A DNA stretch of 54,649 nucleotides from Promethearchaeota archaeon (GCA_011364975.1 RDOE01000016.1:1-54649), one strand, 5' to 3'; shown: positions 1,641 through 25,219, numbered from the stretch's first letter. Notes: generated by a model from the letters alone, not told the origin. Made by a program: numbers and translations.

Positions 1641-1740
1641 TGGGAACGGAGGGAATTGAACCCCCGATCTACAGGTATCCACGCACATTATTTGCTTATA
1701 GGATCTGGAGCCTGGCGTGCTACGACTACACTACGTCCCC
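1641..1740 (-). tRNA. trnW: tRNA-Trp(CCA) with a 28-nt intron at 37/38 (intron about 1677-1704); CCA tail not encoded
   Basis: Minus strand folds as a cloverleaf: acceptor GGGGACG/CGTTCCC+A, D stem GTGT/GCAC, anticodon stem CAGG/CCTG, loop CT-CCA-G|intron|A, T arm GGGGG-TTCAATT-CCCTC. Anticodon at 1708-1706. Confidence 0.93.
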
Positions 1741-23532: not shown

Positions 23533-24426
23533 TTGAGATTGCTGGAAAAAAATGTTATAAAATTAAAATTAGAGGAGGATCAAATTAAATTCCCCTCTCA
23601 CATATTAGGATTGGATATCGGGCAAAGTTTATCTAAAATAGTTTTTACTGAAAATGATGATCTGGTTCTTTCAATTGTAAATACGGACATTGGAATCGAA
23701 GAGATTGAAAAATATATTAACTCATTTAAAAAAAGTATCAAAAAGATAAATTTTACGGGAGGGAGGGCTTTTAATTTATTTTTGCAGTATAAAGATACAT
23801 TTGAATCTGTTTTAATTAATGAATTTGAAGCTAACATTAATGGATTGAATTTCTTACATTTATTCCAAAAAAAGAAAGTATTACCCCCTTCAATTGTAGT
23901 GACTATCGGTACAGGAACTTCCATGGTTTTAAAAAAAGCGAAATTTGAACATATTGGTGGAAGTGCATTAGGGGGAGGATTCTTTATGGGGATTACTAGA
24001 TTACTATACGAGATAACAGATTATCAAGAAGCAATAAAATTAGCTAATACCGGAAATCGTTATAATATAGATCTAAAAGTGGCAGATATTTACGATAAAT
24101 TAGATCCCAGAGTTAATTTATTATTTAGAGAATTCACAGCAGCGTCTCTAGGAAAAATAAATTCTGAATTAGAGTTAAACAATTTTAAAAAGGAAGATAT
24201 ACTTAGCGCTATTAATGCTGCAATCGCAGAAAATGTTGGCACTATTGCTATTTCACTAGCAGATCATAATGATATACCAAATATCGTTTTTTGTGGAGGA
24301 TATCTCATAAATAACAAAGCTTTCAAGCAAATTTTATCATTGTTATGTAAAATTAAAAACAAGAAAGCAATATTTCTTAATTATTCTGAATATGCGGGAG
24401 CTTTAGGTGCTTTAATATCGAATTGA
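23533..24426 (+). CDS. Type II (eukaryote/CoaW-like) pantothenate kinase
   Basis: GLDIGQSLSK, TGGRA, NEF, IGTGTS, GGSALGGG, DLKVADIY, AASLGK and YAGALGAL motifs. Confidence 0.88.
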   Translation: MRLLEKNVIKLKLEEDQIKFPSHILGLDIGQSLSKIVFTENDDLVLSIVNTDIGIEEIEKYINSFKKSIKKINFTGGRAFNLFLQYKDTFESVLINEFEANINGLNFLHLFQKKKVLPPSIVVTIGTGTSMVLKKAKFEHIGGSALGGGFFMGITRLLYEITDYQEAIKLANTGNRYNIDLKVADIYDKLDPRVNLLFREFTAASLGKINSELELNNFKKEDILSAINAAIAENVGTIAISLADHNDIPNIVFCGGYLINNKAFKQILSLLCKIKNKKAIFLNYSEYAGALGALISN

Positions 24427-24444
24427 TTAAGTATTGAGTGCTAA

Positions 24445-24526
24445 TATTGTGTGCCCATTTGGAGATATCTATTCATAGAATTCTTAATAATTTTAAAACC
24501 TCATAGATACACTATAAATGGGCACA
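24445..24526 (-). ncRNA. Box H/ACA pseudouridylation guide sRNA (single hairpin with K-turn)
   Basis: GUGCCCAUUU-AUAGU-GUAUCUAU-GA-GGUUUUAAAAUUAUUAAGAAUUC-UAU-GA-AUAGAUAU-CUCC-AAAUGGGCAC-ACA: lower stem, pocket, 8-bp upper stem, K-turn, and ACA (24450-24448) 14 nt from the top of the pocket. Confidence 0.8.
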
Positions 24527-24565
24527 AAAATAGTAGGCAAAAAGAGAATTTAAAATTTTGCTATT

Positions 24566-25219
24566 TTAAATTGCTTCTGAATGTCTTTTTAACAGATCTT
24601 CATTAGTTCTTCCAGATTTTACAGCTAATTCTGCAATTATCGCATCTAAATAGGTGAATGCTACTTGTTCGAATGCAGTACCTTCTGGTGTAAGTAACGC
24701 AGTATCATCATTAAGATCAATTTTATCTCTTTTAGTTCGTCCCTTTAATTTTATAGTAACATCTCCAATTCTTCCAATAATAGTTTCTGGGTGAGATGTA
24801 ATAGACACTATTCCATAAGGCTTTACAGAATTAACATAACTTTTAAGTAAACTTACGACTATAGCGGTGGTTCCTGAACCGGAAAGTACAATAAGGATAT
24901 CATTCCTCGTAAGAGATGGAATGCTTGCTAAGTTTGTCACAAGGTATACATCTGCACCTAAATGCACTAATCTCGTAGCAAAACATTGTAATATGAAGGC
25001 AGAACGTCCACTAGCCAGTAAGAAAAACTTTCTCTTATTTACTAATCCATCATAAAGAAGCTCAATAAATTTTTGAGTGTGTTTGAAATATTTTGGTTTG
25101 CTTAGGTGTTCCATATTTTGCTTAAGATTATTCATTATCAATTCCATCGATTGAAATAATATCTCCTTGGTTTTGCCATTTAATTTTCCTTCTTCTTTTG
25201 CTTGATCAGCCATAATCAC
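24566..25219 (-). CDS. hxlB: 6-phospho-3-hexuloisomerase (SIS domain)
   Basis: SGRS...FATRLVHLG, LSGSGTT, PEGTAFE and terminal RH motifs. Confidence 0.85.
   Translation of the reverse strand: MIMADQAKEEGKLNGKTKEILFQSMELIMNNLKQNMEHLSKPKYFKHTQKFIELLYDGLVNKRKFFLLASGRSAFILQCFATRLVHLGADVYLVTNLASIPSLTRNDILIVLSGSGTTAIVVSLLKSYVNSVKPYGIVSITSHPETIIGRIGDVTIKLKGRTKRDKIDLNDDTALLTPEGTAFEQVAFTYLDAIIAELAVKSGRTNEDLLKRHSEAI

Follow-up and report, generated by a model that had tools for sequence, protein, structure and literature searches.

The described systems that most closely resemble the RNA analysed here are the single-hairpin box H/ACA sRNAs of the Thermococcales, exemplified by Pab91 and Pab160/Pf9 with folds denoted '10/5/9' and '10/6/9' (PMC2377435, PMC4652768). 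These have a lower stem followed by an ANA box, a bipartite pocket, a GA stem of 10 layers extending to a K-turn or K-loop, a spacing of 14-15 nt and a U-N dinucleotide at the rRNA target. The distance from the ANA box to the pocket or target is given as 14-15 nt (PMC2377435), or as n+15 +/- 1 (PMC7075261). The GA stem is defined as beginning with the pair that closes the pocket and ending with the second G:A pair; a count of 10 layers is common to all the solved RNPs and to 14 of the 15 productive folds of P. abyssi (PMC4652768). It is also stated that 9-10 bases lie between the base of P2 and the distal G:A pair (PMC7075261), that helix H2 has 5 or 6 bp (PMC2377435), and that 5-6 nt separate the pocket from the K-turn above it (review PMC7991803). 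Pairing by the guide strand on the 3' side is described as the more important (PMC2377435, PMC7075261). Statements taken from these papers, here and below, refer to the particular passages cited.

Archaeal H/ACA guides for helix 69 of 23S rRNA have also been described. The sR-h45 RNA of Haloferax volcanii is a double stem-loop, of which SL2 guides the formation of Psi1940 and Psi1942, the pseudouridines given for helix 69 in that species; SL2 leaves a UNUN sequence unpaired and needs its ACA, and the uridines that it modifies are those of the loop, equivalent to E. coli 1915 and 1917 (PMC7075261). Sulfolobus islandicus sR148 is a Cbf5-dependent helix 69 guide that is classed as atypical, acting on 23S U2060 (the equivalent of E. 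coli 1917) and U2066, and none of the three 23S pseudouridines tabled in the same paper is the 1911 equivalent (PMC11077068). P. abyssi has one pseudouridine in helix 69, described as belonging to the two that are highly conserved (PMC2377435). The passages cited from these three papers report no pseudouridine at the 1911 equivalent for P. abyssi, H. volcanii or S. islandicus (PMC2377435, PMC7075261, PMC11077068). Nor is there one at this position in the yeast list of Am2256, Psi2258, 2260, 2264 and 2266, in the part cited (bioRxiv 10.1101/2024.02.02.578723). In human cells snoRA23 (ACA23), a two-hairpin RNA without a K-turn, is listed as the guide for 28S-3737 and 28S-4331 (PMC6466398). Our literature searches, some of which may have missed the spelling 'H/ACA', found no description of H/ACA guides in Asgard archaea.

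We have analysed a hairpin encoded within a 54,649-nt stretch of DNA from a Promethearchaeota archaeon; this whole stretch is termed the window. A preliminary description had proposed that the hairpin is an unannotated H/ACA guide RNA. Our analysis suggests that positions 24525-24448 on the minus strand encode a single-hairpin box H/ACA guide sRNA that would direct Cbf5 to U2136 of 23S rRNA, a reading to which we assign a probability of about 0.8.

The hairpin and its putative K-turn

The putative gene (24525-24448, minus strand) lies where the preliminary description had placed it, and its expected product is a single hairpin of ~78-85 nt. All of the following elements are on the minus strand. 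The 5' strand of the lower stem P1 (GUGCCCAUUU, 24516-24525) pairs with AAAUGGGCAC (24451-24460) to form 10 bp, immediately 3' to which is the ACA box (24448-24450). Above P1 is the pocket, comprising the 5' guide strand AUAGU (24511-24515) and the 3' guide strand CUCC (24461-24464). The upper stem P2 has 8 bp, formed between GUAUCUAU (24503-24510) and AUAGAUAU (24465-24472), with a G.U pair at its lowest position. The 3' strands of both stems are assigned from the fold and from covariation. The ACA box is located 14 nt past the upper stem.

P2 is capped by a predicted K-turn with its apical hairpin (24473-24502), carrying the sequence GA / C-UAU-GA. The prediction comes from the motif GA / C-NAU-GA. 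The GA on the 5' side is at 24502-24501, and is followed by the C-stem and apical hairpin of 23 nt (24500-24478), where G24500 and C24478 form the C-stem pair. The strand continues with the 3-nt bulge UAU (24477-24475) and the GA on the 3' side (24474-24473). In the SL1 K-turn of Haloferax sR-h45 the 3-nt bulge is likewise on the 3' side, with U as its last nucleotide (PMC7075261).

The 10-bp lower stem with its ACA, the internal pocket, the 8-bp upper stem, the GA / UAU-GA motif and the 14-nt spacing had all been put forward in the preliminary description, and each was located. Of the pocket strand given there as UUAUAGU, AUAGU is unpaired in the pocket, and the first two U nucleotides belong to P1, where they form its uppermost two pairs.

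The minus-strand RNA has a calculated minimum free energy of -25.8 kcal/mol with z = -4.25, and none of 200 shuffled sequences folds as well. Its G+C content is 28%, within an AT-rich region of the genome. A reading as a C/D-box RNA was rejected, there being no D box (CUGA) near the 3' end of the hairpin.

Comparison with the published geometry of H/ACA RNAs

The window RNA has the explicit published counts of 14 nt and 10 layers, the latter comprising the eight pairs of P2 plus two G.A layers. Using the scheme of PMC4652768 its fold is coded '10/4/10'. If judged by the wording of a 5-6 bp H2, the upper stem of the window RNA looks 1-2 bp long; we treat the discrepancy between 5-6 bp and 10 layers as a difference of convention. 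The features by which an archaeal box H/ACA RNA is recognised are all present, i.e. the stem followed by ANA, the pocket for a U-N target, the spacing, the K-turn motif, the GA stem and the core proteins, although a lower stem followed by ANA is not found in every member of the RNA's own family (see below). The genome encodes Cbf5 (444 bits, compared with a cut-off of 238), Nop10, Gar1 and two proteins of the L7Ae family, all scoring above the curated cut-offs. The Cbf5 gene is at G000:C124:22852-23799, that for Nop10 at C113:28621-28776 and that for Gar1 at C133:9920-10054, with the L7Ae-family genes at C29:7421-7660 and C113:11402-11680.

The window RNA shares the overall architecture of the Thermococcales sRNAs. 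It differs in its '10/4/10' fold, its 4-nt 3' guide, its 10-bp lower stem, its AT-rich composition and its target. Nor is there sequence similarity, in that a search of 24300-24700 against Rfam with E up to 10 gave no match on the minus strand. Searching the whole window with Rfam at gathering scores gave no match other than one tRNA. No catalogued H/ACA family (HgcE/F/G, the Pab families, SNORA23 and others) thus matched the hairpin. It is unannotated, as had been claimed. The tRNA match (1641-1740, minus strand) extends over 100 nt for a model of 71 positions, suggesting an intron or a long insertion. HgcG (RF00064) could not be matched anywhere in the genome with E up to 1.

We looked for sibling H/ACA RNAs across the genome using a descriptor requiring ACA, a K-turn with a Watson-Crick C-stem pair and no mismatches. 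This gave 40 matches compared with 28 in the reversed sequence, the descriptor being too strict or too noisy to exclude siblings. Only the present RNA stood out; it was the sole match in which a high stem score went together with an rRNA target paired entirely by Watson-Crick base pairs. A scan for a guide to the U1915/U1917 equivalents (GUUAC, stem and ANA) gave 172 unspecific matches, none of which was convincing.

Occurrence of the RNA in related genomes

By BLAST, clear homologs were identified in 19 of the 24 genomes sampled from the genus to which the window belongs. A covariance model (R1) was built from 20 aligned copies, that of the window included, and used to search 151 genomes of the order. 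Matches came from 107 of the 131 f1 genomes, f1 being the family to which the window belongs (its own genome excluded), and fell in nine of the 24 sampled genera of the order, all nine lying within f1. R1 gave no match in 19 genomes from the other three families of the order. There is one copy per genome amongst the R1 matches, with the exception of G047 that has two (C6:108696-108780 and C129:2383-2467); a duplication, or a bin of mixed origin, might account for this.

From the 108 R1 matches 40 further copies were taken for diversity, 64 copies were aligned to R1, and a second model (R2) was built. R2 found the RNA in three of 13 genomes of family f2 and in one of two of family f7, both families belonging to the same class, with no match in nine genomes of families f3-f6. 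In a phylum-wide draw of 123 genomes from 25 other families, other classes included, R2 found none; strict filters applied above 40 genomes, and this means not found in those genomes as searched. A look-alike pattern search of five f2 genomes gave matches at the level of the control, and the f2 homologs came from R2.

The three f2 homologs (L123, at G032:C1:1403397-1403477, L125 and L126) retain the 5' guide and the K-turn, and have a 3' guide of CUC that can form 3 bp. Two of the three are without ACA, and their gene neighbourhood differs. The homolog in G032 has a lower stem of 9 bp, an ACA and a K-turn; its 5' guide is GUUAUAGU, with CUC only on the 3' side. The homolog in G154 has CUCCC with an ACA. 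Among records that carry both the RNA and the SIS-domain gene that adjoins it (see below), L164 is labelled 'Nanopelagicaceae bacterium' and others are labelled as Hod-, Hermod-, Thor- or Odinarchaeota. The SIS genes of these oddly labelled records are 70-82% identical to that of the window, and the labels look inconsistent or the bins mixed.

Covariation and conservation of the elements

A covariance search in relatives had been suggested as a check in the preliminary description; the hairpin is conserved, both stems covary and the guide strands are near-invariant. In the alignment of 64 sequences 94.2% of the cells are standard base pairs, and 12 of the 16 modelled pairs have changed on both sides (102 cells), these pair counts being generous because the sequences were aligned by fitting them to the model and come from related genomes. 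Not one column shuffle out of 500 reached any of the five measures, and on sliding the partners by 1-3 columns the pairing fell to 36-55%. Changes on both sides are found for six of the seven modelled pairs of P1.

Six of the eight pairs of P2 covary. Its lowest pair is G.U in 59/64 copies and never covaries, while the top pair, adjacent to the G.A pairs, is non-standard in 31/64; between them are six solid Watson-Crick pairs. There are also replacements of the whole stem, such that GUGCCCA/UGGGCAC becomes GCGCUGA/UCAGCGC or GCACCUG/CAGGUGC.

In the K-turn, the closing G-C pair of the C-stem is present in all 64 copies, and all 64 read (A/G)UGA on the 3' side; the 5' side is GAG in 55 and AAG in nine. 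The apical hairpin varies in both sequence and length among the homologs. The guide strands were examined in the 74 homologs found beside the best 80 relatives of the SIS gene, where UAUAGU is present in 72 and CUCC in 73. That the pocket loops are more conserved than the stems is what a guide function would predict. One sub-group in the genus of the window has CUCCC as its 3' guide, with the potential to form 5 bp with GGGAG. Members of this sub-group (L009:1493-1577, L011:1501-1585 and L020:1493-1577) have lower stems of 8-9 bp, with ACU or GCU in place of ACA.

Conservation of the box is less complete. The preliminary description had staked its proposal on conservation of both the ACA and the K-turn in relatives. 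The K-turn is retained throughout the alignment and the window copy has a canonical ACA, but ACA is at the expected place in only 42/64 copies of the model alignment and in 51/74 beside the SIS relatives. Counting ANA instead gives 49/64 and 53/74, with its absence from 15/64 and 21/74 respectively. In relatives without ANA the lower stem is followed by ACU, GCU, AUU or ACC. In the ACA-less copies the K-turn, both guides and the 10-layer stem are all retained, and covariation is seen among these copies. The spacing from the upper stem to the box among the 64 homologs is 14 nt in 42, 13 nt in 16, 15 nt in four and 12 nt in two.

The predicted target in 23S rRNA

The 23S rRNA of the organism is encoded on another contig (G000:C137:9328-12681, 3354 nt). 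Its length compared with the 2987 positions of the archaeal model points to sizeable insertions. The pocket predicts GGAG-U-N-ACUAUAA as its target, and this locus contains a single exact instance of the word, GGAG-UA-ACUAUAA. The Rfam archaeal LSU model aligns the site as a hairpin with the stem GGGAGU/ACUCUC and the loop AACUAUA, i.e. helix 69, having the sequence CGGGAGUAACUAUAAC in this organism. CUCC pairs with GGAG (nt 2132-2135) to form 4 bp and AUAGU pairs with 5 bp within nt 2138-2144, all of them Watson-Crick. The 5' pairing could be extended to 7 bp (UUAUAGU with ACUAUAA) using UU (24516-24517), to a maximum of 11 bp in total, but this needs the top two U-A pairs of P1 to be opened. 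Counting against the assignment, the 3' guide offers no more than 4 bp here and 3 bp (CUC) in f2, on the side whose pairing is described as the more important (PMC2377435, PMC7075261). The pairing leaves the standard U-N dinucleotide, U2136-A2137, unpaired.

U2136 is on the 5' side of the two loop uridines, four nucleotides from the first. These uridines correspond to yeast 2258/2260 (bioRxiv 10.1101/2024.02.02.578723) and to E. coli 1915/1917 (PMC11077068), and the predicted target is therefore the equivalent of E. coli U1911, as had been claimed. The preliminary description had further let its proposal depend on complementarity between the pocket and the cognate helix 69, and the alignment to the organism's own 23S rRNA is exact. 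The same helix 69 sequence is common to 39 of 45 matches to the helix 69 pattern across the order, including families f2 and f3. A bacterial-type helix 69 word (CGGCCGUAACUAUAAC) is present at G015:C263:5916-5931 in an Asgard bin, probably on a contaminating contig.

How readily might such a match arise by chance? When the 5+4 guides were permuted, 18% obtained a full site within ~4.15 kb of rRNA (the 3354 nt of 23S and 800 nt of 16S). The 9-bp match is by itself weak evidence, and the case therefore rests mainly on conservation. For the 7+4 pairing only 1.2% of permuted guides obtained a full site in the same rRNA. The AT-rich region, and the number of such hairpins returned by the descriptor from reversed sequence, would likewise suit a chance hairpin with a fortuitous match to rRNA. 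Yet the RNA is conserved in >100 genomes, its stems showing compensatory changes and its loops being invariant, by which a chance origin is already contradicted; its fold has a markedly negative z-score, and it alone among the descriptor matches joined a high stem score to a target with only Watson-Crick pairs. We regard the probability of a chance origin as negligible.

A relaxed scan of the 23S rRNA together with the assembled 800 nt of 16S rRNA found no second site for this register of the pocket. The 16S screen covered the assembled part, the first ~800 nt of the gene, which lies at the end of a contig (G000:C78:11-790). The tRNA screen covered 10 sequences parsed by aragorn. Alternative registers, in which the upper stem has 7 or 6 bp, were also considered and rejected, their 23S sites being either G.U-rich or short.

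The predicted pairing to this same stretch of rRNA is extended by variants of the guides among the homologs. CUCCC can form 5 bp, and the 5' guide GUUAUAGU of G032 can form 8 bp to helix 69.

Gene context and a putative promoter

The hairpin is located in a gap of 139 nt between two convergent genes. The gene for an SIS-domain protein is on the same strand, its stop codon (24568-24566) lying 40 nt before the RNA. On the other strand is a gene for a Fumble-type pantothenate kinase (PanK), ending at 24426. We examined 400 nt of flanking sequence around the 80 best SIS relatives, of which 74 carry the RNA; in 68 it is downstream on the same strand, and the other six have it upstream of SIS, on the opposite strand. 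The f2 and f7 copies have no SIS or PanK gene within 2 kb. A search for related loci using the PanK protein found none.

An element resembling an archaeal BRE/TATA promoter is present upstream (24548-24559, minus strand). It comprises AAAA at -34 to -31 (24559-24556) and UUUUAAAU at -30 to -23 (24555-24548), numbered relative to G24525. The spacing of these is as expected of a BRE/TATA promoter starting at about the first nucleotide of the stem. We compared 38 distinct upstream sequences, a set that includes one chance regex match (L029). A is enriched at -34 to -31, and only T or A is found at -27 and -26. G+C reaches at most 5/38 anywhere between -29 and -23, and the region from -60 to -36 is almost devoid of information. 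Judging from this positional conservation, transcription of the RNA from a BRE/TATA promoter of its own seems probable. A conserved UAC is also present at -10 to -8 (24533-24535), past the TATA-like box and before the stem starts, with A in 30/38 and C in 25/38. Four of the six metatranscriptome runs from the same study were compared at 85% likeness, and none placed a contig on 24380-24620, which says nothing either way on expression.

The RNA follows shortly after the stop codon of SIS in the same orientation, an arrangement recurring in most of the loci, and is placed between convergent genes; this raises the question of whether it might be a cis-element of the SIS gene. It could be a stabiliser or terminator in the 3'-UTR, or a regulatory hairpin that binds L7Ae, rather than a guide acting in trans. 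However, the loci with the RNA upstream on the opposite strand, the promoter-like element, the rRNA-matching loops and the failure to find a terminator-like site at the locus argue against a 3'-UTR or terminator role. Moreover the f2 and f7 copies are beside neither gene, and the most conserved parts of the RNA are the unpaired strands of the pocket, which a terminator or a protein-binding hairpin would not need. We consider a role in cis to be very improbable, and prefer that of a guide RNA acting in trans.

Discussion

The locus is very probably the gene of an H/ACA-type guide RNA, and it is likely that U2136 is the nucleotide modified under its direction. The mechanism that we infer, involving transcription, assembly into an RNP and modification, would run as follows. 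L7Ae would bind the K-turn, and Cbf5 with Nop10 and Gar1 would bind the lower stem and ACA. During ribosome assembly the pocket would pair with the 5' strand of the stem and the loop of helix 69. The predicted pairing of CUCC with GGAG and of (UU)AUAGU with ACUAU(AA) would keep U2136 and its neighbour A2137 unpaired at the foot of the upper stem, whereupon Cbf5 would isomerise U2136 to pseudouridine.

The RNA might form a genuine H/ACA-type K-turn RNP that makes no pseudouridine at U2136, serving instead as an assembly chaperone by which helix 69 is kept open, guiding another RNA such as a tRNA or the remainder of the 16S rRNA, or directing an atypical modification nearby. The core pairing between guide and target is short, ACA has gone from about a quarter of the relatives, and other targets were screened in part (the 800 nt of 16S and the 10 tRNA sequences). 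Atypical modes are documented for sR-h45, in the passages cited (PMC7075261). The geometry is nevertheless that of a canonical productive guide in both the 10-layer GA stem and the 14-nt spacing, with a standard U-N dinucleotide and Watson-Crick pairing in all 11 possible pairs to helix 69. In addition the lineage-specific changes in the guides lengthen the pairing to the same site, and alternative registers offer only G.U-rich ones. An RNP of this kind that leaves U2136 unmodified therefore seems unlikely to us, and we retain pseudouridylation of U2136 as the preferred reading.

Comparison with the known guides for helix 69 places the predicted function in context. The window RNA would, like Haloferax sR-h45 SL2 and Sulfolobus sR148, be an archaeal guide for this helix, and dependent on Cbf5 as is sR148. 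SL2 modifies the loop uridines, whereas the window RNA is predicted to pair with those and to present a uridine four nucleotides upstream. The same uridine is a target in bacteria, where E. coli RluD is the protein-only synthase for Psi1911, 1915 and 1917; RluD is a stand-alone enzyme that uses no guide RNA. Human snoRA23 has no similarity to the window RNA by Rfam scan. We take human 28S 3741/3743 to be the equivalents of E. coli 1915/1917, which would make 3737 the same helix 69 uridine. If this mapping is right, snoRA23 and the window RNA would both be H/ACA guides for one uridine. It is rather doubtful that the Loki-type guide is an archaeal forerunner of the human snoRNA hairpin for 28S-3737. 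If it were, RNA-guided modification of the site would predate eukaryogenesis, with loss in yeast.

This is a conserved and uncatalogued guide RNA, yet it is of a well-known kind and leaves the general picture of the H/ACA RNP unchanged. Asgard guide RNAs are absent from Rfam, and the R2 family provides a covariance model that is ready for the annotation of these genomes. With its naturally ACA-less variants the family provides a natural experiment on the extent to which Cbf5 depends on this box in vivo. Should the prediction prove correct, Loki-type archaea would pseudouridylate a site that is modified in bacteria (and presumably, by our mapping, in humans). The RNA family thus offers a testable site of rRNA modification for cultured Asgard strains, along with ACA-less variants with which the anchoring of Cbf5 may be studied.
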